A DNA stretch of 64,000 nucleotides from Candidatus Tagabacteria bacterium. GTDB lineage: Bacteria; Patescibacteriota; Minisyncoccia; GCA-002779875. A program made the translations under genes and the position numbers. This document shows positions 4,412 through 62,216 of the stretch, in pieces (position 1 is the stretch's first letter; each line of letters starts with the position of its first letter). The stretch spans positions 3,853 through 67,852 of the forward strand of contig CAWGAO010000005.1 of NCBI GenBank assembly GCA_963820595.1, read 5' to 3'. The notes beneath the pieces were generated by a model. It ran no database searches, had not been told where the DNA came from, and worked only from the letters and a program-made list of their open reading frames with translations.

Positions 4412-5629
4412 TTAATCTTTTTTAAAGACGCCGTTTTCGTAGATTACGACAGTGCCTCCGGTTTTGAGATGAGCGGTCATTTTTTTTCTTTCGGTATTTA
4501 TCAAATCCCAATGGATAGCTGAATCATTGAATCCGATTTCCTTTTTCATTTTTTTCGTCAGTTCTTTCGGGTTGCCGCTGTAAGTATCGGAATAACTTGC
4601 GCCTACGGCGATATGGCAATTGCCTTCTTCGCCTCCGACATTTTCGTCAAACAGGGTATGGGCCATAAATTTGCGAATGGGCGAAAATCTTTTGTCGGTA
4701 AAAGATATTTCTCCGATACGCCCTGCTCCTTTATCCGTTGCCAGCATCTTTTTGACGAATTCTTCTCCTATTTTTGCATTTATTCCTACGGCATTCCCTT
4801 TTTTAAAGACCAATCGGACACCCTCAACGTAATTTCCCATTACAAATGACGGCATGTTGGCGTAATAAATTCCTTTCGTTCCCCGCCAGTCGGGAGAAGT
4901 AAAGATTTCAAAACTGGGAATATTGTGTCCGCTTACTCCCAGCCACTTTCTTTTTGAGCCGGGCGTTATCATAAGGTCGGTATTTTCGGATTCAATATGG
5001 AGATGGTCAATGTCTTCTTCGAGTTCGTTCAGCCATGTTTTTATGGCGATGCTTTCTTTGTATAATTTTTCCCATTCGGTTACCGGATTTTCCTTATCCA
5101 GATAACAGGCCCTGATAATCTCTTCGCCGTATTCTTCGACACTCATATTGGCTTTTTCCGCCAGGGCTTTGGTCGGCATCATGCAAAGAGTCCAGCCGAA
5201 TTCTCCCTTTTCCTCTCGTTTATTTCTGATTGTACATAAGAGTTTACCGACCCTTGCCGTAACGGCAAATTTCTTCGGGTCAATGCTCGATAAATGGGTA
5301 AGCGAAGCCGGCGCTCCTAGCCAGATAGAACCGTTCAAATGCTTGTAAAGTGTTTTATTCCAGGGCGCCAAAAATTTCAGCTGTTCTTCATTCGCCACGT
5401 CAAAAAAATCAAACTCCATTTTCGGAGTGTCGTCCATTTTCATTACTACATGAAATCCTTTTTCCAGCAGTTTCCGGTGTAAAATTTCGGCTAATTTCAG
5501 AGAATCGAGCTCGTAGCGAACAATAATAATGTCGCCCTTTTTGAATTCGCCACCCGTGGTTTTTCTGGCCGTTTCCAATCCCCAAATCAGGACGTCGGCA
5601 TATTTATTCAGTACGGTTTCGTCAAACAT
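4412..5629 (-). CDS. M29 family aminopeptidase (AmpS/PepS-like)
   Basis: 405-aa ORF with overall resemblance to thermophilic metalloaminopeptidase family M29 (from memory, not searched). GAAAGGAG SD upstream. Confidence 0.6.
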   Translation of the reverse strand: MFDETVLNKYADVLIWGLETARKTTGGEFKKGDIIIVRYELDSLKLAEILHRKLLEKGFHVVMKMDDTPKMEFDFFDVANEEQLKFLAPWNKTLYKHLNGSIWLGAPASLTHLSSIDPKKFAVTARVGKLLCTIRNKREEKGEFGWTLCMMPTKALAEKANMSVEEYGEEIIRACYLDKENPVTEWEKLYKESIAIKTWLNELEEDIDHLHIESENTDLMITPGSKRKWLGVSGHNIPSFEIFTSPDWRGTKGIYYANMPSFVMGNYVEGVRLVFKKGNAVGINAKIGEEFVKKMLATDKGAGRIGEISFTDKRFSPIRKFMAHTLFDENVGGEEGNCHIAVGASYSDTYSGNPKELTKKMKKEIGFNDSAIHWDLINTERKKMTAHLKTGGTVVIYENGVFKKD

Positions 5630-5668
5630 CTGTTTTTTCTCCTTTCAAACAACTAATAATCTGCGCGA

Positions 5669-5696
5669 ATTATAGCAAACAGTCAACTTTTGGCAA
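5669..5696 (-). promoter_or_regulatory. candidate promoter for the aminopeptidase gene
   Basis: On the minus strand: TTGCCA-16 nt-TATAAT, about 35 nt upstream of the SD/ATG. Confidence 0.45.
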
Positions 5697-5743
5697 GATT
5701 TGTGATATTCTTAAAATAATGCGTATCATTGCCGACCCCGCCC

Positions 5744-5840
5744 TAATTTTACGAGGTAGAACCATAGCGAGACGCTTCGCGCAAAAGGCCTGCCTGCCGG
5801 CAGGCAGGGATGCGCTATTCGCGCCCGCGCCTCGCGAGAC
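5744..5840. repeat. partial copy (H) of the GC-rich palindromic element core
   Basis: About 88% identical by eye to the reverse complement of 15197-15302. Contains ACCCCGCCCTAATTTTAC and the 20-bp perfect palindrome CCTGCCTGCCGGCAGGCAGG (5789-5808). Confidence 0.85.
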
Positions 5841-5920
5841 AGAATTAAGTTTCATTTTTTTTGTTTAAATTCAAATCCGTTTCCAACGGTAAAATTAAAG
5901 CGGGATTAAAGATTTTATTT

Positions 5921-7156
5921 ATGAAATTAATTGCCGACTTTCATATTCATTCAAAATATTCGCGGGCGGTTTCTCAAGATATGACCTTGGAGAATCTTGA
6001 TATTTGGGCGCGGAAAAAAGGAATTCAGGTGATGGGCACGGGCGATTTCACTCATCCCGCATTGGTTTAATGACATTAAAACAAAACTCGAACCGGCGGA
6101 GCCCGGACTTTAATCCGATATCCTAAAGTCGAACGAAGCGTCGGGACTAAATCAGACTTCGACGCGTTTTATGCTTACGGTCGAGATTTCCAGCATTTAT
6201 TCAAAAGGCGGAAAAGTACGGCGCGTGCATAATATTATTTTCTGCTCCATCTATTGAAACTGCGGAAAAAATTAATACAACTTTATCTTTAATCGGTAAT
6301 ATAAAAAGCGACGGCCGGCCTATTTTAGGCCTTGATTCGAAAAAACTTCTTCAGATAATTCTTGGAATTGACCCGAGATGCGTTTTAGTGCCAGCCCACG
6401 CCTGGACGCCGTGGTTTTCAATATTCGGCTCGATGTCCGGGTTCGATTCTATCGAAGAATGTTTTGAGGAATTGAGCGGAAACATTTTTGCCATTGAAAC
6501 AGGGCTTTCGTCGGACCCGGCAATGAATTGGCGGCTTTCAAAACTGGACAAAATCGCGCTAATTTCCAATTCCGATTCCCATTCGCCGCAAAAAATCGGC
6601 AGGGAAGCGAATGTTTTTGACTGCGAACTTTCCTATGACGGGATAATTGATGCAATCAAATCTCATGACCCTGAAAAATTTCTTTTCACTATTGAATTTT
6701 TCCCCGAAGAAGGAAAATATCATTACGACGGCCACCGGGCTCTGCAACGTTTCGATGTCGCCGGAAGAAACCAAAAAAAACAAAGGCATTTGTCCCGTTT
6801 GCCATCGGCCTTTGACTATCGGCGTTTTGTATCGGGTTGATCAAGTTGGCCGACAGACCGGTTGGAGAAGGCGGAAACGGAAAAATTCCTTTTCGAAATC
6901 TGATTCCTTTGAATGAAATTATAGCCGACATTTTTGGATTTGGCGTCGCTTCAATGGCAATTAGAAAGGAATACGAAAAACTTATCAACGCCGTCGGGAA
7001 TGAGTTCAAAATTTTACTGGATGCCGATTATCAGACGCTTAGCAGGGTAACTTCGCTGGCTATCGCCAGGGCATCGTCAGCGTACGCGAAGGGAAAGTCG
7101 AACTGATTCCCGGCTACGACGGCGAATACGGTAAAATTAAAATGTTTAAAGGATGA
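5921..7156 (+). pseudogene. endonuclease Q-like PHP-domain nuclease, multiply frameshifted
   Basis: Pieces lie in three frames. They are MKLIADFHIHSKYSRAVS..GTGDFTHP (5921-6070), PAHAWTPWFSIFGS..SDSHSP..GKYHYDGHRA (6388-6840), CPVCHRPLTIGVLYRV, 6837-7106, and the C-terminal IPGYDGEYGKIKMFKG* (TGA 7154-7156). At least 5 frame changes. Confidence 0.7.
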
Positions 7157-7198
7157 GAAGGAAAAAACAACCAGTCCCATCAATCCCGCCTCTTTTAG

Positions 7199-7394
7199 AA
7201 AAATAAGGAGCCCCGACGTAAGGCGGGACGACTATATTTTTCTTACCCCCTCACTCAAATTTTCATTTAGTTCCTAAGTAATTATTAAATTTAAAAATTA
7301 ATACTCGATTAAAAATGATTTTTTTGAGATAATTTTGATTATGAGTGAGGGGGTGCTCAAAATTATTATTCACTAACGTTCATATAATTTTGGC
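7199..7394 (+). repeat. modular palindromic intergenic element, copy A (M + long C5/G5 stem + M')
   Basis: M is GAAAAATAAGGAGC-ccgacgtaaggcggga-CGACTATATTTTTC (7199-7242). The stem is CCCCCTCACTCA (7246-7257) paired with TGAGTGAGGGGG (7342-7353). M' (7354-7394) ends at the ATG at 7395. Confidence 0.9.
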
Positions 7395-8054
7395 ATGAAT
7401 ATAAAAAAGTTTTTCTTGCCGATAAATAAAATTATTAAGGTTTTGATGTTGTCCGACTTTATTATTATTTCGGCTTTTGGGTTTGTGGCGCCGATTTTTG
7501 CCCTTTTTCTTACCGATAAAATTCAAGGCGGAACGATAGAAACCGTCGGTTATGCCGCGGCTATTTATTGGGTTGCGGCAGTTTTAACCCGTTTGCCTAT
7601 TGCCAGACGTATAGATAAAACCAAATCGGAAAAAGATGACTTCTATTTTATGATTTTCGGCTCTATTTTGATTGCTGTCGTGCCTTTTCTTTGGATTTTT
7701 AGCACTAAAATTTGGCATATTTATTGCATTGAAGCGCTTTACGGTTTGGGATATTCTTTGCGTCTTCCGGGTTGGTATGGTATGTTTACCCGCCATATCG
7801 ATAAGGGTCACGAAGGTTACGAATGGAGTTTCGATTCTTTGGTGTCCGGTGTCGGTTCCGGCATTACGGCGGCTTTGGGCGGAATTATGGCTGCAAGGAT
7901 GGGTTTCAATGCTTTATTCATTGTTATCGGAGCTCTTTCGATTATCGGTTCGGCTGTTTTAATTTTTCTTTATTATATCGTCGAGCCGGATCACCGGCGC
8001 AATGATAATATTCCGGGTTTAAGTTTAAATAATGATGGAGATAAAAAACAATAG
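7395..8054 (+). CDS. six-TM MFS-like half-size transporter
   Basis: 219 aa with six hydrophobic helices. The loop motif RLPIARRIDK resembles the MFS D-R-x-G-R-K-type loop. Confidence 0.4.
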   Translation: MNIKKFFLPINKIIKVLMLSDFIIISAFGFVAPIFALFLTDKIQGGTIETVGYAAAIYWVAAVLTRLPIARRIDKTKSEKDDFYFMIFGSILIAVVPFLWIFSTKIWHIYCIEALYGLGYSLRLPGWYGMFTRHIDKGHEGYEWSFDSLVSGVGSGITAALGGIMAARMGFNALFIVIGALSIIGSAVLIFLYYIVEPDHRRNDNIPGLSLNNDGDKKQ

Positions 8055-11114: not shown

Positions 11115-11176
11115 ATAGACTAACAATAAGATTAAAAACCTCTTAAAATAAGGGGGTTTTGAGCATTTAGTTATGC

Positions 11177-11206
11177 TTGACAAAATCATTTTAATCGTGG
11201 TATATT
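11177..11206 (+). promoter_or_regulatory. candidate promoter (extended -10)
   Basis: TTGACA-18 nt-TATATT with TGg directly upstream of the -10. AAGGAGG SD follows. Confidence 0.45.
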
Positions 11207-11249
11207 TAAAAAGGAAAATAGAGGGTTTTTAAAAGGAGGTAAAAAGAAA

Positions 11250-11441
11250 ATGAGAGGAAGACTTACCAGAATTTATTATAGATATCCTGGAACTATGAGA
11301 GCCGTCATTCGAGACGTTTGGGAAGAAGCAACGAATCTTCTTAAAGAGAAGGAGAAGTTGGAAAATCGGCTAGCCGAAATTAATAAAAGACTTACTGTAC
11401 TTGAAAAGAAGCCCAGTAAGATTGTCGAACATCGCGCTTGA
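11250..11441 (+). CDS. hypothetical small coiled-coil protein
   Basis: 63-aa ORF with a strong SD (AAAAGGAGG) and a terminator downstream. Confidence 0.35.
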   Translation: MRGRLTRIYYRYPGTMRAVIRDVWEEATNLLKEKEKLENRLAEINKRLTVLEKKPSKIVEHRA

Positions 11442-11533
11442 CTAAACTCCTATCGCGGTAAAGATTGATGTTGCTTCGGGAATTGTAATAAATCCAAACA
11501 TAAGTTTTTAAAGACTGTAAACCTCTCTGACTA

Positions 11534-11569
11534 TTAAGGGGATCCGACGTGAATCCCCTTAATTTTTTT
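11534..11569 (+). terminator. rho-independent terminator
   Basis: TTAAGGGGAT-ccgacgtga-ATCCCCTTAA followed by T7. Confidence 0.75.
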
Positions 11570-11704
11570 CTAAATTGTGCTAAAATAAAAATAACGGGAG
11601 GAGATAAAAACTTTGCAATTGTTTTATGAAATATTCGAATTACAAAACTTCTGAAGAAGTGTTTATTAAGGAAATGAGAAAATTTGAAGTAAAAAATCCA
11701 CTTT

Positions 11705-12448
11705 ATGGAAAATTTAGATAAAAATATGATTTCAAAAGAAAACATTCTTCGACCGCCGGAGAAAAAATTCTGGAAGCTTATTTCCGAAGAGCCGGCTTTT
11801 GTCAGTATTTTGAGCGAGAAAGACCCATCCGATATCGAGTGGTATAAGAAATTGGACAAAAGCCCGGAGGTGCAGAAATGGATGATTGAAGACGGGGAAG
11901 AAATGACGGAAGAAGACATAAAACATATCATCGCCCATCACCCTCAAAAATGGCTGTTCTATGCCGTCAGTGGCGAAAAAAGCGGAAGCGAAGTGGAAGG
12001 CTGGATTCAAATGTGGCCGGAGGAAGAAGAAATTGCCGATAGAATCAGGAAAAAATTTTCTGCAGATTTGCCAAAAGACAATCTAATATTGGAATTGAGC
12101 TACGCCAGATACAAGGACCCCAATATACCGAAAGAAAAACGCGAAAAGGGAATTATCTCGAGCGGCCTAAGGCAAGTGTGTTATTTGCTCGGTTTGCATC
12201 TGACCGGAGAGGACGCGGAAACCAAGGCGGCAAAAAAACCGTTATTGAAACCAAAATTAAATATTGTGGCCTATACCGATCCGGAGAACGAACCTTCCGA
12301 AAAAGTTTTGGAAAAGTCCGGATTTAAAATTGTCGGCAAGATTAAATACGAGCCTGGCAGCGGAAAAGAAGACAACTTCTGGGTGCTTGATTGGGATAAA
12401 TTGAGAGATTTTTACGCAAAAATAGACGAAGAAAGAATAAAAAAATAA
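11705..12448 (+). CDS. GNAT-family acetyltransferase-like protein
   Basis: C-terminal NIVAYTDPENEPSEKVLEKSGFKIVGK resembles the GNAT beta-strand/helix motif (N-x-x-S-x-x-x-x-EK-x-GF). The start is uncertain; an upstream ATG at 11626 lies in another frame. Confidence 0.45.
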   Translation: MENLDKNMISKENILRPPEKKFWKLISEEPAFVSILSEKDPSDIEWYKKLDKSPEVQKWMIEDGEEMTEEDIKHIIAHHPQKWLFYAVSGEKSGSEVEGWIQMWPEEEEIADRIRKKFSADLPKDNLILELSYARYKDPNIPKEKREKGIISSGLRQVCYLLGLHLTGEDAETKAAKKPLLKPKLNIVAYTDPENEPSEKVLEKSGFKIVGKIKYEPGSGKEDNFWVLDWDKLRDFYAKIDEERIKK

Positions 12449-12489
12449 ATTCTCGCATATTTTTTCTAAAAAGTGTTAAAATTAAGAAG

Positions 12490-14841: not shown

Positions 14842-14903
14842 AAATTTTTACTCTTGCTTGCCCCGTAGCTCCGCCGAAGGCGGATGGTTCGGGGTCATAT
14901 ATT

Positions 14904-15095
14904 TTAGCGAATATAAGGCAATAGTTGTTTTAATTGTTTTCTGCTGATTTTAAGTTCCCTCCATTTTTTCGAGGCAAGCTCTTTTTTCCTTTTTTTCTTC
15001 GCCCGAAAATGAATTAAGCCGCCTTTACGGATTAATACTTTTCCTTTGCGCGTTATTTTTACGCGCTTTAATAATGCTTTGTTGGTCTTTGCCAT
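14904..15095 (-). CDS. rpmI: 50S ribosomal protein L35
   Basis: 63 aa, highly basic (MAKTNKALLKRVKITRKGKV). Position is between infC and rplT. Confidence 0.9.
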   Translation of the reverse strand: MAKTNKALLKRVKITRKGKVLIRKGGLIHFRAKKKRKKELASKKWRELKISRKQLKQLLPYIR

Positions 15096-15302
15096 TTTTA
15101 TTATGAGCGGAGCGAATTATAAAAATGAGCACCCCGCTCTAATTTTACCGTTAAAATCAAAATTGTCATTTATTGAACTAAAGAACCTATTTTAATCTCG
15201 CGAGGTGCGGGCGCGAATAGCGCATCCCTGCCTGCCGGCAGGCAGGCTTTTAGCGCGAAACGCCTCGCCGTTGTTCTATCTTGTAAAATTAGGGCGTGGG
15301 TT
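15096..15302 (-). repeat. modular palindromic intergenic element, copy G (between infC and rpmI)
   Basis: M' abuts the rpmI ATG (sense: GGGGTGCTCATTTTTATAATTCGCTCCGCTCATAATAAAAATG). Outer stem is 15130-15148 paired with 15283-15302 (CCCCGCTCTAATTTTAC / GTAAAATTAGGGCGTGGG). The GC-rich core carries CCTGCCTGCCGGCAGGCAGG (15227-15246). Confidence 0.9.
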
Positions 15303-15318
15303 GCCCTCCTTTTAGCCC

Positions 15319-15828
15319 TTATTTAATTCTTTCTATGATGATGTTGATGCCTGTCGGGCCGGATTTTGGGCCTTCAACCACTTTACAATTTTCCGTTATT
15401 AAAGGCAAGATGCGTTCAATTCTCGGCTTTAAAAAATTTCTATCAAGAAATTTCGCCTGACCTCTTAAAATGAGATCAACTTTTATCCGATGGCCTTCTT
15501 TTAAGAACTCCGAAGCTTGTTTTGCTTTTACTTCCAGGTCGTGTTGGGATGTGCCCAGTTTGAGCCGGATGCTTTTTGTTTCGACTTCGCGCGCTTTTTT
15601 TGAGGCTTCCTGCGCTTTCTTTTTCTCTTTGTACTGATATTTTCCGTAATCCATTATCTTGGCAATCGGAGGATTCGCAGTCGGGGATATTTCTATCAGA
15701 TCAAGTCCTTTATCTTTTGCCATTTGGAGCGCGGCCGCAATTTCAAGAACTCCCAGATTATTTCCTTCTTCATCTATCACCCTTAAGGGCGAAACCGCTA
15801 TTTGATTGTTGATGCGTACTTTTTTAAT
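15319..15828 (-). CDS. infC: translation initiation factor IF-3 (probable AUU start)
   Basis: IKKVRINNQIAVSPLRVIDEEGNNLGV... The reading frame extends upstream of the first ATG to ATT at 15828, which is preceded by an in-frame TAA. An AUU start is classical for infC. Confidence 0.9.
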   Translation of the reverse strand: MKKVRINNQIAVSPLRVIDEEGNNLGVLEIAAALQMAKDKGLDLIEISPTANPPIAKIMDYGKYQYKEKKKAQEASKKAREVETKSIRLKLGTSQHDLEVKAKQASEFLKEGHRIKVDLILRGQAKFLDRNFLKPRIERILPLITENCKVVEGPKSGPTGINIIIERIK

Positions 15829-15900
15829 CAGATGTTTTTATTTTAGCGGATTTATGATTTTACGCAAGAATACCGAATAAAGTGATTGTTTCGTCATATG

Positions 15901-16208
15901 TAGCCCCGTACAAATTTTGCGAGATTTGCCTACAAGTCCTCAAAAATCATAGTCGCTTCACTCCTTGATTTTTGGGCTCGCAGGCCGCCCCTCGCCCCGC
16001 CTGCGGCGGGGCTGCGGTCTTCAAATCTCGCTCCAGCTATTCGTGAAAAAGTAGCCCCAGCACAGCAGTTTGCGAGATTTTTCACCGGCAAGCCGCTTCG
16101 CCCTTAAGGGATGTGCCTATTCGGCACGCGCGGCTTGCGAAAGAAATTCTTACTTAGTGATATTGCAATAATTTTTGTAAAAACAATATGGCAAACTGTG
16201 TGCGGGGC
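15901..16208. repeat. compound nested-hairpin repeat region (J) downstream of tmRNA
   Basis: Direct repeat GTAGCCCC(g/a)..TTTGCGAGATTT at 15901-15930 and 16051-16086. Hairpins at 15920-16031, 15995-16013, 16088-16138 and 16054-16208. Confidence 0.8.
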
Positions 16209-16221
16209 AAAGGTTTCGCAA

Positions 16222-16257
16222 CCAAAAATCTGGCACCGCATGGCGCCAGATTTTTGG
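16222..16257 (-). terminator. tmRNA terminator hairpin
   Basis: CCAAAAATCTGGC / GCCAGATTTTTGG form a 13-bp stem directly 3' of the tmRNA end (minus-strand sense). Confidence 0.7.
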
Positions 16258-16269
16258 GCGAATTCACTT

Positions 16270-18123: not shown

Positions 18124-18321
18124 ATGTCGCTTACAGGAAAATTAGTTAATTATCTGAAGGAAACAAAAGTTGAATTAAAGCACGTTAATTGGCCGACCAG
18201 AAAAACGACCATCCGTTTTACGCTCCTCGTAATAGGCATTTCGTTTGCTATCTCGCTTTTTTTGGGATTTTTCGACGCGATTTTCAAATATTTGTTAGAC
18301 ACTTTTATTTTTAAGGTTTAA
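18124..18321 (+). CDS. secE: preprotein translocase subunit SecE
   Basis: 65 aa. KVELKHVNWPTRKTTIRFTLLVIGISF (KV.WP motif plus a single TM). Lies upstream of nusG. Confidence 0.8.
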   Translation: MSLTGKLVNYLKETKVELKHVNWPTRKTTIRFTLLVIGISFAISLFLGFFDAIFKYLLDTFIFKV

Positions 18322-18531
18322 TTTCTAAGGTGGGCGACCCCGCACAAATTTTGCGGGATAAATTAATGGCAGACCGCTGCGCCCAAAAAGGATGAAGCTA
18401 TTCGCTTCCCGCGGTCTGCGAGAGCAAAAATTTATTATTTTATTAAAGGTTTAATTTATAGCGTGAGGGGGTGGCAAAATTTGAGCGGGGTGCTCATTTT
18501 TGCGACTACTCGCTGACGCTTGCAGGCAAAA
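18322..18531 (+). repeat. modular palindromic intergenic element, copy I (secE-nusG gap)
   Basis: Outer stem is GACCCCGCACAAATTTTGC (18336-18354) paired with GGCAAAATTTGAGCGGGGTG (18473-18492). Inner stem is GCAGACCGC/GCGGTCTGC (18369-18377/18411-18419). An M'-like tail (CTCATTTTTGCGACTACTCGCT...) runs to ATG 18532. Confidence 0.85.
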
Positions 18532-19078
18532 ATGGCAAAACAAACATCGGAATTCGGGAGAAATTGGTACGCGGTGCATACCTACGCCGGTTACGAAGAT
18601 GCGGTTGCGCGCAATTTGAAGCAGCGCATCGAATCTTTGGGAATGGAAGACAAGATTTTTAACGTCTTGGTTCCTACCGAAAAGAAAATCCGTATTAAAG
18701 GAGGAAAGCGGAGAACGGTGGAAGAAAAAGTTTATCCCGGCTATGTTCTCGTTGAAATGATAGTCGCCGACGACTCCTGGTATATCGTGCGAAACACTCC
18801 TAGAGTTACTGGTTTCGTCGGTTCGGGCACTACGCCCATACCTCTCCAGAAAGAAGAGGTGGATATGTTGTTTCAGCGGATGGGAGCCAAAGAGCCGAAA
18901 TACAAGTTCGATATCGCGAGTCGGCGATACGGCCAGAATTTTTGACGGACCATTTAAGGATTTCGAAGGAAAAGTACACGCAATTGACGAAGAGCGCGGA
19001 AAGATAAAGGTTCTGGTTTCAATATTCGGCCGGGAGACGCCGGTTGAATTGGACTTTTTGCAGGTGAAAAAGATTTAG
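18532..19078 (+). pseudogene. nusG: transcription termination/antitermination factor NusG, one frameshift near 18925
   Basis: MAKQTSEFGRNWYAVHTYAGYE (NGN domain) runs to 18945. The KOW part, [52 protein letters not shown], is in another frame and ends with TAG at 19076-19078. Confidence 0.85.
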
Positions 19079-19150
19079 AAAAATAAGGAGCGATAGCGAC
19101 TATATTTTTCGTAAAAAATTATTATTCACTAACGTTTATATAATTTTGGC
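19079..19150 (+). repeat. modular palindromic intergenic element, minimal copy B (M directly abutting M')
   Basis: AAAAATAAGGAGCgataGCGACTATATTTTTC is followed by GTAAAAAATTATTATTCACTAACGTTTATATAATTTTGGC, then the ATG of rplK. Confidence 0.9.
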
Positions 19151-23881: not shown

Positions 23882-25509
23882 ATGATAAGAGATATTTTGT
23901 CGAGACGAAATTAGAAAAGGCGCTTAAAGCTCTTTATCCGGATATTGCTTATCCCGAAATTTCTGTTATCCGGAACGAGAATCCCGTTTTCGGAGATTAT
24001 GGCTTTGCCGTGATTGCTTTGGCTTCAAGAATAGGCAAGAATCCAAGAGAGATTGCCGAAGAATTTAAAGAGAAAATTTCGGCTTCGTCAAAAATCAGCC
24101 GCTATGTTTCAAAAATTGAAGTCGCCGGTCTGGGCTTTTTGAATTTTTGGCTTTCGGAAAAAGGTCTAGAAGAAGGATTAAAGAATCTAGACAAAAAGTT
24201 TACCCGCCAAGGGCGGGAAAAAATTTCCCTCGATTATCTTGATGCCAACCCGACCGGGCCGGTTCATTTGGGTCATGCCAGAAGCGGTTTTTATGGCGAC
24301 GTTTTGGCTAATATTTTGGAATTTTACGGCCATAAAGTTTCGAGGGAATTTTACGTCAATAACGCAAAATCGAGTCGGTACAAATTCAATCTCTTGGAAA
24401 AACAGCATTGGGGCAGGGGGAAGAATACAAGCACGAACAGCTTTTGAAAATTTTGGAAAAGCCGGAAGTAAAAAAGAAATTAAAAACGTTCAAGGAAGTA
24501 AAAGAGGCGAGTTTGCTCGCCGAAGCTTCAGCGAAGGCGGGATTTTATATCGCAGGATTGATTCAAAAAGAAAACGAAAAATTTTTGAAAAAATGTCGCC
24601 AAAATAAAATTTGATTTATTTTTTGAGGAGGAAAAAGTTTATTCATCGGGTAAGGTAAAAGAAATCATTGAAAAACTAAAGAAAGCAGACGTGACGTATG
24701 AAAAAGACGGCGCTTTGTGGTTTAAATCAACGCAATACGGCGATAGTGAAGACAAGGTGATTATAAGAAGCACGGGCGAGCCGACTTATTTTGTGCCGGA
24801 CATATATTATCATTTGGACAGGTTGATTAAGAGAAAGAACGACAAAGTTATCAATATATTCGGCGCTGACCATTACGGCGCCATTGCCAGAGTAAAAGGC
24901 GCTTTGGCGGCTTTGGGAATTGATACAGAAAAAATAGTTTATCTTTTGGTCCAGATGGTGCGCTTGATAAAAGGCGGCGAAGAGCTGAAAATGCAAAAAA
25001 GAAAAGGCGTGTTCGTGACCTTGGAAGAATTGATTAAAGATGTTGGCCTGGACGCTGCAAGGTTTTTCTTTCTAATGCGGTCGTTGGATACGCATTTGGA
25101 TTTTGATTTGGATTTGGCGAAGGAGCGTTCCAAAAAGAATCCGGTTTATTATGTCCAGTATGCCCATGCCCGGGCGTGTTCGATAATAAGAAAGTCAAAA
25201 GTCTCCGTCCGAGGCGGATTCGTCTTCAGCGGAAAAATTCAAAATTCAAAAGAGAGAAATTTAATTTTAAAACTCATCCAATTTCCGGAAGTTGTTGAAG
25301 ACATCGCCAAAGATTATCAAGTTCATCGCTTAACGACTTACGCATACGAATTCGCGCAGGTTTTTACGGATTTTTACGAAAATGTTCCGGTTTTGACTGC
25401 CGAAACGGAGGAACTGAAAAAATCCCGCCTTGTCTTGGTTTCCATTGCCAGAAAAATTTTAGAGAGAAGTCTATCATTGATGGGTATTTCCGCTCCGGAG
25501 AAGATGTAG
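23882..25509 (+). pseudogene. argS: arginyl-tRNA synthetase, at least 3 frameshifts
   Basis: Fragments are 23882 (MIRDILS), 24010-24447 (NPTGPVHLGHARSG, a HIGH-type motif), 24408-24614, and 24691-25509 (GADHYG..., C-terminal anticodon-binding part ending ISAPEKM*). Confidence 0.85.
25477..25508 (+). repeat. 32-bp direct repeat, copy 1 (native argS 3' end)
   Basis: TTGATGGGTATTTCCGCTCCGGAGAAGATGTA. The second copy at 26453-26484 differs at 1 nt. Confidence 0.95.
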
Positions 25510-28253: not shown

Positions 28254-28483
28254 CCAAAAATTAAGAAAGTCGCTTTTATGCGACCGACTATAATTTTTGA
28301 GAACCCCGCTCTAATTTTGCCGTAGATGTTTCAATAAAGGTTTAACAAATCTAAAAAGGCCGAGTTGTTCTCATGGCGCAGAGCCGAAATAGGCCGAGCG
28401 AAGCGAGTGCGCCACCGTAGCAATATTTCGCAAAATTAGGGCGGGGTTGAAAGGGCTGTTAAATTAAGTACTATTAACATTAT
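28254..28483 (+). repeat. modular palindromic intergenic element, copy F (upstream of ileS)
   Basis: M-like CCAAAAATTAAGAAAGTCGCttttatGCGACCGACTATAATTTTTGAG. Stem is AACCCCGCTCTAATTTTGC (28301-28320) paired with GCAAAATTAGGGCGGGGTT (28430-28448). The tail runs to ATG 28484. Confidence 0.85.
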
Positions 28484-31400
28484 ATGCAAGGAAAGGAGGA
28501 AAAATTAAGTTTTCCCGAGCGGGAAGAGAAGATTTTGGAGTTCTGGAAAAAGAACAAGATTTTTGAAAAATCCGTTGAGCAGAGGAAGGGCGAAAAAGAA
28601 ATTCGTTTTTTACGAAGGCCCGCCGACGGCCAACGGCCAGCCAGGCATTCACAGCATGGAAGCGCGTGTTTTTAAAGATATTGTTTTGCGCTATAAAGCA
28701 ATGCGGGGATTTTATTGCAAGCGAAAAGCCGGCTGGGACACCCACGGTTTGCCCGTAGAAATCCAGGTTGAAAAAGAACTTGGTTTAAAAAATAAAAAAG
28801 AAATTGAGGAATATGGCATTGAAAAATTTATAGAGAAATGCAAGGAAAGCGTTTGGCGTTACAGGAATGAGTGGGAAAATACTGACATACCGGATGGCTT
28901 ACTGGCTGGATATGAAAAACGCTTACGCGACAATGACGAACGATTACATCGAAACTCTTTGGTGGATTTTCAAAGAGATCGACAAGCGAAAATTGCTTTA
29001 CGAGGATTATAAAATCGTTCCTTGGTGTCCGCGTTGCGGAACCGCTCTTTCTTCGCACGAGGTCAGCCAGGGTTATCGCAAAATAAAAGAAGATTCCGTT
29101 TATATAAAATTTCCCGTGAAAGGAAGACCGAATACTTATTTTTTGGTTTGGACAACTACGCCCTGGACATTGCCGTCCAATGTTGCTTTGGCGATAAATC
29201 CCAAAATAACGTATACCATAATCGAAAAAGACGGACGAGCGCTTGATTTTGGCGAAAAATCGCCTTTCCGTTATCGATGGTGAATACAGGATTGGCGAAG
29301 AAAAACCGGGAACTGATTTAATCGGCAGAGAGTATGACCCCTTATACTCGCGGAGCGCTTAACCCAGACCAAGTCGAGGGGCTTATAAAATTTATGCCGC
29401 GGATTTTGTTTCCGCTGACGACGGCACGGGTATTGTCCATATTGCTCCGGCTTTCGGCGAAGACGATATGAAACTGGGCAAAGCGAATAATCTCCCGGTT
29501 TTAAGTCTTGTCGACGAAGAAGGAAAAATGCTGACGCCGAATTACAAATGGAACGGAATGTTTATCAAAGACGCCGACCCGTTGATTGTCGAAGATTTGC
29601 GCCAAAGAAATCTTCTTTATAAAACCGAAAGCTACGAGCATGATTATCCTTTTTGCTGGCGCTGCGACAGTCCTTTGATGTATTATGCCAAAACTTCCTG
29701 GTGGCTGAAGACAACAGGCGTAAAACAGCAGATGATTAAGGAAAATAAAAAAATTCACTGGCACCCGGATTATTTGAAAGACGGCCGTTTCGGCGAATGG
29801 CTGAACGAGTTGCGGGATTGGGCGATTTCGCGCGAGCGTTATTGGGGAACGCCGCTTCCGATATGGCGATGTCCTGATTGCAAGCGTTACGAAGTTATCG
29901 GCTCAAGAGAAGAGTTGAAGAAAAAAACCGTGAAATCGGGAAACAATTATTTTTTGATGAGGCATGGATTTTCGGAAGCCAATCAGAAAAATATCAATAA
30001 TTCAAATATCGAAACAAATCATTACAAACTGACTCCAAAAGGCAAAAAAGAAGTTTTGAAAGCGGCCCAAAAATTGAAAGAAGCAAAAAATAGATTTGAT
30101 TTTCTCCTCCGATTTTTTGAGAACAAAGGAAACGGCGCTGTTGGCGGCTGAAACTTTGGGCATTCCAGAAAAGGATGTTGTTTTTGACGAACGATTGCGC
30201 GAAATAAATACGGGAATTTTCGACGGAAAATCCCGCGCCGAATATCACAAATATTTTTCTTCGCTTCTGGAAAAATTCACCAAAACCCCGCCTCAAGGCG
30301 AAAATTTAACCGAATTGAAAAATCGCATCACGCAGTTTTTGTATGAAATAGAAAATAAGTACAAAGGTAAAAACATTTTGATTGTCAGCCATGAATATCC
30401 GATTTGGATGTTAACTGCGGGAGCAAAAGGAATGACTAACGAGGAAGCGGTGGCGACTAAAGGGGAAAAAAGACGATTTTATTAAAACAGCCGAAGTTAT
30501 GAAACTGGATTTTACGCCTTTGCCTCATGACAAGAATTTTGTTTTGGATTTTCACCGGCCATATATAGATAAAATCATATTGAAATGCGACAAATGCGGC
30601 GGCGACATGATTCGCATTAAAGATGTTTGTGATGTTTGGTTTGATTCCGGTTCGATGCCGTTCGCCCAAAATCACTTTCCATTTTCTATCCCTAAAAAAA
30701 ATTTACTCTATCCGGCGGACTATATTTGTGAAGCGATTGACCAGACAAGAGGGTGGTTTTATACGCTGCTTGCGGTTGCGATTTTGTTGGGACGAAAAGC
30801 GCCTTATAAAAACGTGCTTTCTTTGGGTTTGGTTTTGGACGCCGAGGGGCAAAAAATGTCAAAATCGCGCGGCAACGTGGTGGTGCCAGGAGAATTGATG
30901 AACAAATACGGCGCCGATGCGGTGCGCTGGTATTTTTATACCATCAATCAGCCGTGGGACGAAAAATTATTTAAAGAGGAGGATGTCCAGGCGGCTTTGC
31001 GAAGATTTATTTTGATTTTTTGGAATTGCTTTTCCTATTGGAAAATGTACGCGGGTAAAAATTTTAAAATCAATCCGCCAGCTGGCGGACCCAAATTGGT
31101 TATCAATAAATGGCTGCTGGCGAAATTTAATCAAATTGCCTTAGAAGTTCCCAAATTACTCGATAATTACGATATCGTTTCAGCGGCGCGGTTGATAGAA
31201 GATTTTGTAATTGAAGATATCTCTCATTGGTATATTCGCCGCATGCGCGGAAATAACTGAAAAATTCCGGTTCCCGAGAAGCCAAAGAAATAAATGCGGT
31301 TTTGGGCCAAGTGATTATGGACACAGCAAAATTACTTGCGCCGTTTATGCCTTTTGTTTCAGAAACGGTTTACCGGGAAACGGGCGGGAAAAAGAAAAGC

Positions 31401-34560: not shown

Positions 34561-34772
34561 AAAAATAATGAGCCCTGCCTGCCGGCAGGCAGGGAAGCGA
34601 CTATATTTTTCTTAACCCCCATCTTTTACACCCGACCATTTTAAGGTTAATATTAAAGATATTCTATGATGCAAACTTTTATGCAAACTTCAATGTTGTA
34701 TATATTCTGGTCGGTGTTAAAAGAGGGGGTGATAATTTTATAAAATTCACTTCGTTCGCTAGTAAAATTATC
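34561..34772 (+). repeat. modular palindromic intergenic element, copy C
   Basis: M is AAAAATAATGAGC-CCTGCCTGCCGGCAGGCAGG-GAAGCGACTATATTTTTC. Stem is CCCCCATCTTTTACACCCGACCA (34616-34638) paired with TGGTCGGTGTTAAAAGAGGGGG (34708-34729). M' runs to ATG 34773. Confidence 0.9.
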
Positions 34773-40632: not shown

Positions 40633-40808
40633 GAAAAATAAGAAGCGTTAGCGATTATATTTTTCCCAACCCCCTCTTTTACACCCAAATATTCTTTTTA
40701 TAGCTATATGTAAAAACCAAAAATAATTACTGAAATTGACATTAGATTAAAATTTTGGGGTTAAAAGAGGGGGTTCTCATAAATTATATTCGTTTCGCTC
40801 ATTAATTT
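40633..40808 (+). repeat. modular palindromic intergenic element, copy D
   Basis: M is GAAAAATAAGAAGCgttaGCGATTATATTTTTC. Stem is CCCCCTCTTTTACACCC (40670-40686) paired with GGGGTTAAAAGAGGGGG (40757-40773). M' (TCTCATAAATTATATTCGTTTCGCTCATTAATTT) runs to ATG 40809. Confidence 0.9.
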
Positions 40809-52833: not shown

Positions 52834-52948
52834 AATTTCCAAAAAATAAAGAGCGAAGCGATTATATTTTTTGAGAACCCCGCCTTTGGCGGGGTTAAGG
52901 TTTTGCAACCACGATTTGTCGCTTCATTCCAAATCGCGGGCAAATTCC
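52834..52948 (-). repeat. modular palindromic intergenic element, copy E (ssb-rpsR gap)
   Basis: Sense strand: AACCCCGCCaaaGGCGGGGTT followed by CTCAAAAAATATAATCGCTTCGCTCTTTATTTTTTGGAAATT and then the ATG of rpsR. An extra hairpin lies at 52911-52938. Confidence 0.85.
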
Positions 52949-60443: not shown

Positions 60444-62216
60444 TTATTTATTAATAATTATGATTCTACTTTCTATTTCCAGTTTAATTTTTCCGATAAA
60501 ATTGTCAATCTCCATCGCTCCCAAATCTCCTTTGCCGCGTTCGCGCACGGCAACCGTTCCTGATTTTTCTTCCTTGTCGCCGACAACCAAAAGATAGGGG
60601 ATTTTCTGCAATTCGCCTTCGCGAATTTTTTTGCCGAGAGTTTCGTTGCCGTCGTTTATTTCAGGACGGAGATTTTCTTTTTTAAGCAGCTCAAAAATCT
60701 TTTTTGCGTAATCGTTGAATTTTTCGCTTACCGGAATTATTTCCGCCTGCACCGGCGCGAGCCAAACCGGAAAAGCCCCGGCATAATGTTCAATCAATAC
60801 TCCCAAAAATCTGTCCGGCGAACCGATAATCGCGGAATGAATCATAACCGGCGTTTCTTTTTGTCCGTCCTTTCCTGTATATTCGAGGGAAAATCGTTGG
60901 GGCATGTTGAAGTCCAATTGGATTGTGGATAATTGCCATTCGCGGCCAAGCGAATCTTTTGCTATCAAGTCCATTTTCGGGCCGTAAAAAGCCGCTTCTC
61001 CCTCCGTTCGGAAATATTTAATCTTTTTTTCTTTCAGAATATCCTCGAGGATTTTTTGGGATTTTTCCCAAATTTTGTCGTCGCCGAGATATTTTTCCTT
61101 ATTCTTTTTATCGCGCAGCGAGAGCCGGATGAAATATTCCATTTTATAAGTTTTCATCGCCTCCTCTATCACGGAAAGCAGAAAGCCGAATTCATCCATG
61201 ATTTGGTCCTCGCGGCAGAAACTGTGGCCGTCGTCCTGGGCAAAAGCCCTTAGTCGCATCAGGCCGCTTAGTTCGCCGGTTTTTTCGTCGCGGTAAAGGT
61301 TGGCCGAATCGGCTATCCGTATCGGCAAATCGCGATAGCTTCTCATTCGCGCCGCGTAAATCTGCGTGTGCTGGGGGCAGTTCATCGGTTTCAGATAATA
61401 TTCTTCTTCGGAATAATTTGAAACGACTTTGAACATGCTGTCTTTGTATTTTTCGTAATGGCCGGAAATTTTGAAAAGTTCCGCCTTGTTCATTTGCGGC
61501 GTATGGACTTCTTCGTAGCCGATTTATTTTCTCAATTTTGAGGAGTAATCCGTTATAGTTTTTCTGATAAACGCGCCTTTAAACGTGTAAAGCGGGAGGC
61601 CCGGGCCGACCAAGTCCGAGAAAACAAAAAGTTCCAGTTCCTTGCCGAGTTTTCGGTGGTCTCTTTTTTCGGCTTCTTCCTGGATGCGGAGATAATTTTT
61701 CAGTTCTTCCAAAGAATCGAAAGCAACGGCGTAAATTCTGGTGAGCATCGGATTTTTTTCCGAACCTTTCCAGTATGCGCCGGCGATTTTTGTGAGTTTG
61801 AAGCTGACGTTTCTTAAATCTTCGGTAGATTCGACGTGCGGACCGGCGCACAAATCGATAAATTCGCCGGACCGCCAGCCGGCGGGCAAGTTTTGTAAAT
61901 CGTGATCGGCTGTTTGTTATTTTCCAATTCTTCGACAATCGCCAGTTTGAAGGGCTGGTTTTCGAATATTTTCTCTTGCTTTTTCCGGCGGAATTTCTTC
62001 GTGTTCGAATTTAAATTCGGATTTTATAAATTCTCCCATCCGTTCCTGGATTTCTTCCAAGTCATCCGATGTAATCTTTTTTCTGAAATCGAAATCGTAA
62101 TAAAAGCCGTTTTCGATTATCGGCCCGATGCCCATTTTCGTATCCGGACACAAATCCAAAACCGCCATTGCCAGGACATGGGCCAAGGAATGCCGTTTTG
62201 TTTCTATACTAGCCAT
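60444..62216 (-). pseudogene. thrS: threonyl-tRNA synthetase (no TGS domain), 2 frameshifts
   Basis: Fragments are 60444-61493 (class II core plus anticodon-binding domain), 61524-61889, and 61917-62216 (MASIETKRHSLAHVLAMAV..GFYYDF, the editing-domain start). Confidence 0.9.

Follow-up and report, generated by a model that had tools for sequence, protein, structure and literature searches.

In the 64,000-nt stretch of Candidatus Tagabacteria DNA analysed here (the window), the spacer between infC and rpmI is, with a probability that we put at about 70%, one copy of an undescribed family of short, non-coding, self-complementary mobile elements of the type called MITEs, for miniature inverted-repeat transposable elements. 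Four clear copies of the family and one or two degenerate ones were found in the window, and a further copy lies on a groundwater contig from Hainich (L124). The family is expanded in this one lineage of Patescibacteria (candidate phyla radiation, CPR), and the insertion that makes up the spacer, copy A, is recent. No description of such elements in CPR hosts was found in the literature searched.

The operon runs on the minus strand in the order infC, a 223-nt spacer (15096–15318), rpmI and rplT. Relatives were found by an IF3 search and their contigs fetched; their infC–rpmI junctions measure 1 nt in L121 (AAATAA-C-ATG; IF3 99%, DNA 85–96%), 14 nt in L122 (IF3 84%) and 0 nt (AAATAAATG) in both L125 (IF3 87%) and L126 (IF3 82%). 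Since the junction is 0–14 nt in these four relatives and 223 nt here, the full spacer is a lineage-specific insertion. The same kind of difference is seen at other copies: the secE–nusG junction is 6–22 nt in the relatives vs about 210 nt in the window, and the start of endoQ is unbroken in L121 and L122. In all, empty sites were seen for copy A in four relatives, for copy D in three and for copy B in two, and a profile of the family had no match in 13–20 kb of syntenic DNA from each of L121, L122, L125 and L126.

Copy B adds the trace left at the target. In L121 and L122, endoQ begins ...ATATTCTTARAATA-ATGCGCATAATYGCGGATTTTCA... and in these relatives the stretch that is duplicated here stands only once, as ATGCGCATAATCGCGGATTTTCAC; both window copies are homologous to their single ATCGCGGAT. 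The window gene starts at ATG 5719 and reads ATGCGTATCATTGCCGAC; the element follows, and then ATTGCCGAC again. Because ATTGCCGAC stands twice around copy B and once in the relatives, these 9 bp are duplicated target sequence, and from a duplication of this length we infer that a DDE transposase making staggered cuts is favoured. An endoQ product started from the in-frame ATG in the tail of copy B would begin MKLIADFHIH instead of MRIIADFHIH.

The endoQ gene (5921–7210) is split by frameshifts, as are argS (24010–25509), ileS (28563–31260), thrS (60444–61889) and nusG (18520–19081). Indel errors in a long-read assembly are a likelier cause than gene decay, because essential genes are affected too. 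We considered endoQ as a pseudogene and rejected this as unproven, ileS, argS, thrS and nusG being equally frameshifted.

Members of the family and their common plan

As mRNA-sense RNA, the region that spans the spacer (15090–15325, 236 nt) reaches a folding energy of −80.1 kcal/mol (z = −3.96), which is matched by none of 200 dinucleotide shuffles. A preliminary description of this DNA, made from its letters, had proposed a single nested hairpin, closed by an outer stem and containing a perfect 20-bp palindrome that recurs in the window, and all of this stands: the outer stem is present with one bulged T, and the palindrome, CCTGCCTGCCGGCAGGCAGG, is exact at three window positions (5789, 15227 and 34574), where shuffles expect 0.00. 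The size of 207 nt given there has to be replaced by 223 nt for the inserted unit. The inverted partial twin reported next to endoQ is inverted indeed, with 86% identity over 116 ungapped nt (5736–5851 vs 15184–15299) and 80% over 170 gapped nt (5736–5904 vs 15133–15299; E = 5e-36), but it is full length, with both terminal repeats, and although it was placed at the right locus it lies inside the first codons of the gene and does not merely adjoin it. The complete intragenic twin, the palindrome as a separate nested module and the further members in the window had all been missed. The suggestion of a dispersed element that colonised an essential operon is borne out by the empty sites in four relatives, by the presence of the same element at no fewer than three non-ribosomal sites of the window, and by the copy in an unrelated organism.

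Copy A holds no open reading frame (ORF) of note. Read along the plus strand, it consists of a tail with GAGCGGAGCGA and an A/T-rich stretch, the left repeat ACCCCGCTCTAATTTTAC, a variable AT-rich arm of about 50 nt, the core, the right repeat and a short extension (Table 1). Terminal inverted repeats of 18–19 nt, (A)CCCCGCYCTAATTTTRC, are common to A, B, D, E and L124, and ACCCCGCTCTAATTTTAC recurs with 0–3 mismatches at the ends of B, D, E and L124. Family members are 178–225 nt long and non-coding, and beyond one repeat of each lies a 25–40-nt tail extending to the next gene's start codon; D and L124 keep a tail similar to that of A as far as the ATG downstream. The extension of A, GGGCTAAAAGGAGGGCA on the mRNA strand, is absent from the relatives and resembles TTTCTAAGGTGGGCG at the same position in D. 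With a profile (nhmmer) built from A, B and L124, these three copies scored E-values of 1e-66 to 1e-68, D 6.8e-18, E 2.2e-6 and F 0.006. Copy D has the same ends, tail and core plan and is without the palindrome.

The L124 contig was the sole match when metagenomes were scanned with 26 nt of the core. Its element has the same tail, repeats and core, carries the palindrome with one mismatch, and is flanked by an unassigned gene and by one whose translation looks, by eye, like a transketolase. As the GC content of that contig is 55% vs 42% in the window, the composite element exists in two very different organisms. This bears on whether the spacer or its twin could be an assembly artefact or chimera, which we consider hardly credible. 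The many frameshifts in essential genes do suggest an error-prone long-read assembly, but indel noise cannot create a 223-nt structured insert; the copies differ by 14–20%, have proper gene flanks on both sides and show a target duplication at B, and the same element stands on a contig obtained independently, in a different study and from a different organism.

Table 1. Positions of the operon genes, the copies of the element and their parts in the window (position 1 is its first letter)
Feature	Position	Strand	Remarks
infC	ATT start ~15828; stop codon 15319–15321	minus	classical ATT start
rpmI	15095–14904; start codon 15093–15095	minus	
rplT	14841–14497	minus	
Copy A, complete inserted unit	15096–15318	minus	fills infC stop to rpmI start
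Copy A, tail	15096–15130	minus	adjoins rpmI start; terminator-like site, TATAAT hexamer, GAGCGGAGCGA motif
Copy A, GAGCGGAGCGA motif	15104–15114		in tail
Copy A, TATAAT hexamer	15116–15121		in tail
Copy A, left terminal inverted repeat	15131–15148		ACCCCGCTCTAATTTTAC; pairs with 15283–15301
Copy A, GC-rich core	15200–15268		~70% GC; three-way junction
Copy A, P1	15200–15207 with 15261–15268		
Copy A, P2 hairpin	15211–15223		GCGC-GAATA-GCGC
Copy A, P3	15227–15246		exact 20-nt palindrome CCTGCCTGCCGGCAGGCAGG; third arm of core
Copy A, right terminal inverted repeat	15283–15301		GTAAAATTAGGGCGTGGGT; one bulged T in outer stem
Copy A, extension	15302–15318	minus	adjoins infC stop; Shine-Dalgarno-like
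Copy B, full-length	5737–5929	plus	opposite orientation to A on contig; inserted after endoQ codon 6
Copy B, left 9-bp target duplication	5728–5736	plus	ATTGCCGAC; endoQ codons 4–6; original ATG 5719–5721
Copy B, right 9-bp target duplication	5930–5938	plus	ATTGCCGAC; runs on into endoQ frame FHIHSKYSR...
Copy B, palindrome	5789–5808		
Copy B, in-frame ATG in tail	5921–5923		
Copy D, full-length	18321–18532	minus	fills secE–nusG junction; nhmmer model positions 2–218
Copy E, diverged	28283–28460	plus	upstream of ileS; terminal repeats 28303–28321 and 28429–28447
Copy F, degenerate	~16047–16220	minus	upstream of infC; weak nhmmer match; architecture read directly from sequence
Third palindrome copy	34574–34593		nested in a different repeat family just past a stop codon

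Further differences from the relatives lie around the operon. A 62-nt spacer with a nested hairpin (CCCCGAACCATCCGCCTTCGGCGGAGCTACGGGG) stands between rpmI and rplT (14842–14903); L121 shares it, and the spacer there is only 1–8 nt in L122, L125 and L126. It is a second, older insertion in the same operon. On the other side, a GC-rich block of 434 nt (15836–16269) with one or two degenerate repeat copies parts infC from tmRNA; L122 is without the entire block, and tmRNA abuts infC there. In L121 the tmRNA–smpB segment (2057–2922) is inverted relative to the window, and positions 5610–8033 bear the signature of a diversity-generating retroelement, namely genes for a reverse transcriptase (RVT_1) and for bAvd; the counterpart of that region in the window (11116–12481) is unrelated sequence that includes a GNAT acetyltransferase.

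The folded core and the route of movement

The core is about 95% conserved among A, B and L124, and comparison with the other copies shows its stems changing in step. P1 comes in four complementary versions: GCGAGGYG/CGYCTCGC in A, B and L124, GCAGACCGC/GCGGTCTGC in D, GCAAGCCGC/GCGGCTTGC in F and TGGCGCA/TGCGCCA in E. The P2 stem likewise comes in four (GCGC/GCGC in A, B and L124, GAAGC/GCTTC in D, GTGCC/GGCAC in F, GCC/GGC in E) around a constant loop, GAATA in A, B, L124, D and F and GAAATA in E. The third arm is the palindrome in A, B and L124, CC-TTTTT-GG in D and CCC-TTAA-GGG in F. Besides GAATA, the fixed loops are ATCC after P2 and GCGAA after the third arm. The stems of E and F were read by eye from sequence, and the MAFFT alignment of the six cores was poor.

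In the four best copies 92% of the stem cells are paired. Changes on both sides of a pair were counted at 8 of 44 (2.7 ± 1.3 in shuffles, none of 500 of which reaches 8; slid controls gave 1–4); pairing amounts to 97% in P1 and, across four copies, to 94% in the outer helix, where two pairs have changed both partners. Covariation and pairing above the controls together indicate that folding as a single strand has been preserved.

In their small size, lack of coding capacity, terminal inverted repeats, multiple dispersed copies and insertion polymorphism, the elements agree with MITEs, and as such they would be moved in trans by an enzyme encoded elsewhere. Several observations weigh against this. 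The target duplication is clear at B only (9 bp), with A, D and L124 flanked by similarities of 4–5 nt. No parent autonomous element with the same ends was found in the window or the fetched loci, and none of the 10 unassigned ORFs of the window contains a transposase domain, its other ORFs looking like housekeeping genes. The inverted repeat of B reaches the end of the element on one side only; beyond the other lie 25 nt of tail, which a simple DDE cut would not typically leave. Stems that covary around fixed loops suit a folded single strand, whether RNA or single-stranded DNA (ssDNA), and not a transposase that binds double strands; wobble pairs and folding energies do not agree on which strand folds. 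The promoter and terminator roles suggested for the tail are read from consensus matches only, and the copies seen, in the 64-kb window plus L124, number five or six.

The covarying hairpins may keep another route open, in which the element moves as ssDNA and the enzyme is not of the DDE type: either a hairpin-recognising HUH/Y1 enzyme (as in REP/REPIN with RAYT and in palindrome-associated elements derived from IS200/IS605) or a site-specific recombinase acting at a short common core. Covarying stems and fixed loops are expected if a folded single strand is recognised, and the motifs GCGAAGC and GCGGAGC, which form very stable DNA mini-hairpins, are part of the tails and of E's core. The stem mismatches in A, B, D and L124 are mostly G–T on one and the same strand, and in four copies wobble pairing speaks for the strand that is antisense to the neighbouring genes. 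In addition, GCCGAC outside the repeat of B resembles the extension of D itself, GGCGAC, which is compatible with recombination at a short shared core. We nevertheless consider movement of this kind unlikely: whole-element folding energies show no consistent strand preference, B has its 9-bp duplication whereas IS200/IS605 and REPIN movement leaves none, no RAYT (Y1 transposase) or TnpA gene was seen in the window, and the element is without a GTAG or CGTC head such as that of the two large REP superfamilies (PMC3733652).

A three-way core with invariant loops and compensatory stem changes, conserved to such a degree between two very different genomes, could also belong to a functional RNA module, acting in cis as a regulator or else forming a small RNA gene, that was recruited repeatedly before highly expressed genes (rpmI, nusG, infC and ileS) and kept by selection. 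Four of the five clear copies have the same orientation to the downstream gene, with the tail ending at its ATG, and terminator-like and TATAAT-like sites in the tail would fit as well. Yet close relatives lack the element at every one of these sites, one copy interrupts coding sequence, copy E has the opposite orientation and TATAAT is not conserved in D or L124. The position before start codons is itself no argument, as with tiny ancestral spacers any intergenic insert abuts a start codon automatically. Nor does any Rfam family match: at the gathering level only tmRNA was found in the window, and permissive scans of A, D, F/G and L124 gave chance-level matches only. Repeated recruitment of an RNA module thus appears distinctly improbable.

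The preliminary description had left open a mimic of the L20 operator. A leader or operator that responds to L20 as a mimic of 23S rRNA and controls rpmI–rplT would be in the right operon, and the spacer is strongly structured, but it is absent from four relatives, in which infC and rpmI are adjacent or no more than 14 nt apart, and the same sequence stands at endoQ, secE–nusG and ileS and in another organism. At E ≤ 10, Rfam returned only chance-level matches of microRNA type on copy A and no L20_leader. Copy D, which is outside this operon, has a weak L20_leader (RF00558) match on the plus strand (18383–18505; 18.5 bits vs a gathering score of 58.7, so 40 bits under it; E = 0.17–0.21). We rejected it as chance: it is driven by the GAAGC/GCUUC hairpin, a generic one, together with an AU-rich stretch and a terminator-like end, and it is absent from A and L124. 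A dedicated leader, as the preliminary description had reasoned, should be conserved only at infC–rpmI, with the twin proving chimeric; comparison of the relatives' spacers gave the opposite. The comparative data effectively refute a conserved L20 leader, the spacer being lineage-specific, and we give an L20 role for it almost no weight.

If the spacer is a MITE-type insertion, as we prefer, the operon has to work around it. The relatives couple rpmI to infC stop-to-start; with the insert in between, rpmI must start on its own. On the mRNA strand the tail reads GAGCGGGGTGCTC-ATTTTT-ATAAT-TCGCTCCGCTC-ATAATAAAA-ATG, with GCTC preceding ATTTTT, and the minus strand carries a terminator-like site made of GAGCGGGGTGCTC and ATTTTTATAA. 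The leader ahead of rpmI is unstructured, A/U-rich and without a Shine-Dalgarno sequence; other genes in the window are likewise without one, and some start 6–7 nt past a TATAAT. A promoter and terminator scan gave one terminator-like site and one internal promoter-like site, which is not above shuffle expectation. The motif GAGCGAAGCGA-TATAAT was not found in the relatives' intergenic DNA, from which it follows that it travels with the inserts; we rejected it as a clade-wide promoter for the same reason.

Folding of the insert back on itself in the transcript may be what lets copies survive in essential operons. Directly before the downstream start codon, its tail would then place a leader that is A/U-rich and unstructured, possibly together with a TATAAT promoter that follows a terminator-like hairpin, and so would permit expression of rpmI–rplT despite the lost stop–start coupling with infC. 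The element is most likely selfish or neutral and not a regulator.

The 20-nt palindrome and other nested modules

The palindrome that forms the third arm of the core in A and B has a history that is partly its own. Copy D has a clean gap exactly at its position. At the third window position it is nested in a different repeat family, of which the homologous repeat at 7194–7250 has a different small hairpin there and the copies at 19083 and 40638 have none. It is, then, nested in two unrelated repeat families of the window, and homologous copies of both are without it. It is a separate unit, which had already entered the core of the A/B/L124 subfamily by the time that those copies spread.

Outside the window, a scan of species-representative genomes gave at least 120 stretches with the palindrome (~0.5 expected by chance, assuming uniform composition), and the phyla among the matches listed are Patescibacteria, Bacteroidota (cultured isolates among them), Omnitrophota, Planctomycetota, Proteobacteria and Chloroflexi. 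IMG/VR viral contigs contain it in 35 stretches, and two palindromes of the same composition gave 0 and 0 there. No exact copy was found in 50,697 GenBank phage records, and the sequence was not found in the searchable literature. Its edges are sharp, in that the inner 18-mer adds only 2 stretches, and its flanks show no consensus and rarely a duplication.

The places in which it sits are varied: inside its own centre (L018 and L042), at the apex of longer hairpins, in the D-loops of tRNA-like fragments, and in the variable loop of a viral tRNA-Met, for which ARAGORN predicts a long arm and, once the 20 nt are deleted, a canonical 72-nt tRNA. It is also read in frame, as LPAGRQ, in bS6, in a GatB-like protein (named by eye only) and in others; in bS6 the alignments to solved S6 chains resume right after LPAGRQ. 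That the palindrome is itself an ultra-small mobile unit, which has spread through bacterial phyla and through the viruses that infect them, is a tentative reading, possible but clearly short of even odds. The spread may have a technical source, against which stand its presence in cultured isolates and within contiguous genes and its occurrence on contigs that, judging by their names, come from several different assemblers.

Related pieces were seen in several places. One viral contig closes (L160, 3916–4142) with at least ten 21-nt units in tandem, CCATGCCTACCGGCAGGCAGG, a variant of the palindrome with two mismatches. In L015 (4061–4090), CACCCGACCAT stands next to the palindrome, as it does in the window element at 34617, and in L003 (Wolfebacteria; 892–1065) GAGCGAAGCGATTAG... 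follows right after a stop codon; both L003 and L015 are Patescibacteria with pieces of the same repertoire.

The window holds other small cassettes as well. One of 69 nt lies between nusG and rplK (19083–19150), where the relatives have 3–4 nt. The final 39 nt of this cassette (AAAATTATTATTCACTAACGTTYATATAATTTTGGCATG), in which the start codon is contained, are repeated with 97% identity before an MFS transporter gene (7359–7397), which suggests a portable module of promoter and leaderless start. A second hairpin family, with inverted ends of the ACCCCCTC type, is found at 7201–7394, 34561–34760, 40638–40800 and 52851–52900; its hairpins are nested in copies of a cassette starting AAAAATAAGGAGC...AGCGAYTATATTTTTC, right after stop codons, and the copy at 7201–7394 is absent from L121.

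Known systems and the operons of a CPR lineage

MITEs inside operons have been described in Geobacter uraniireducens (Chunjie; PMC10969869), as have MITEs that carry promoter, terminator or RNase sites (Correia elements; PMC2649163). Chunjie elements (Chen et al., 2008, as cited in PMC10969869) are similar to the present ones in being ~180–235 bp long and non-coding, with terminal inverted and direct repeats and many dispersed copies, and in a recent insertion inside an operon that is still usable. There is no sequence similarity, however, and here no parent insertion sequence is known, the duplication is seen in one copy only, and the covarying three-way core, the asymmetric tail and the CPR host are different. 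The 2024 review of MITEs does not mention CPR bacteria (PMC10969869).

The Correia elements (CREE/NEMIS) of Neisseria also have inverted repeats that enclose a conserved core, form co-transcribed hairpins, can create promoter hexamers at their ends, lie between or before genes and vary in presence among close strains (PMC2649163). They differ in their TA duplication, 26-bp repeats, IHF site and demonstrated RNase III processing, as against a 9-bp duplication and a sequence of its own here. We rejected assignment to them on two points: B is flanked by 9 bp and not by TA, and the terminal repeats are unrelated. ERIC/IRU of enterobacteria and RUP, BOX and SPRITE of pneumococcus are likewise imperfect palindromes of ~100–200 nt, intergenic and transcribed, found also in operons and folding within the mRNA (PMC2229807, PMC3049150), but their sequences and hosts are unrelated and their terminal and core architecture differs. 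REP, BIME and REPIN sequences with RAYT share the extragenic palindromes, the compensatory change that keeps a hairpin, the lineage-specific expansion and the lack of coding capacity (PMC3116915, PMC3733652); REPs, unlike the present elements, are 20–40 nt long, have a GTAG or CGTC head and make no target duplication, and the units here are five to ten times longer. REP/REPIN as defined in PMC3733652 was rejected for units of ~200 nt whose ends in A, B, D and E are without either head. With the L20 leader (RF00558) and the E. coli L20 operator, the element has in common the infC–rpmI–rplT operon and a stable RNA structure ahead of rpmI; it differs in being neither conserved in relatives nor operon-specific, and in having no significant match to the model.

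For the palindrome the nearest comparisons are smaller. Very small dispersed repeats (SDRs) of cyanobacteria were reportedly described by Elhai et al. in 2008, a study listed in PMC3116915. Like SDRs, Rickettsia palindromic elements (RPEs; PMC10969869) and the GC clusters of yeast mitochondria, the palindrome is tiny, is nested in repeats and structural RNA genes, is tolerated in frame and likewise shows no obvious target duplication. SDRs are, however, confined to related cyanobacteria and RPEs are ~150 bp long and found in Rickettsia only, whereas the exact 20-mer crosses phyla and occurs in viral contigs.

A large structure in infC–rpmI–rplT invites the label of an L20 leader, and the relatives show it to be a passenger; structured spacers in CPR operons need to be checked against sister genomes before a riboregulator is called. 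CPR genomes are small and tightly packed, with stop–start junctions, and this lineage nonetheless admits repeats of ~200 nt as well as smaller nested cassettes. The junctions invaded, which belong to essential genes of translation and transcription, are infC/rpmI, rpmI/rplT, secE/nusG and nusG/rplK. Since the inserts break translational coupling, their tails must allow independent expression, and the inserts are in this sense a natural experiment on how much operon architecture CPR cells can lose.

That a covarying three-way core goes together with the hallmarks of MITEs points to a folded single strand as what is recognised, and the presence of the element in two genomes that differ greatly in base composition implies that it has passed between organisms. 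Of the leads, the cross-phylum palindrome most deserves to be followed and is more novel than the element itself: if its mobility is true, it would rank with the smallest and most widespread of known mobile sequences.

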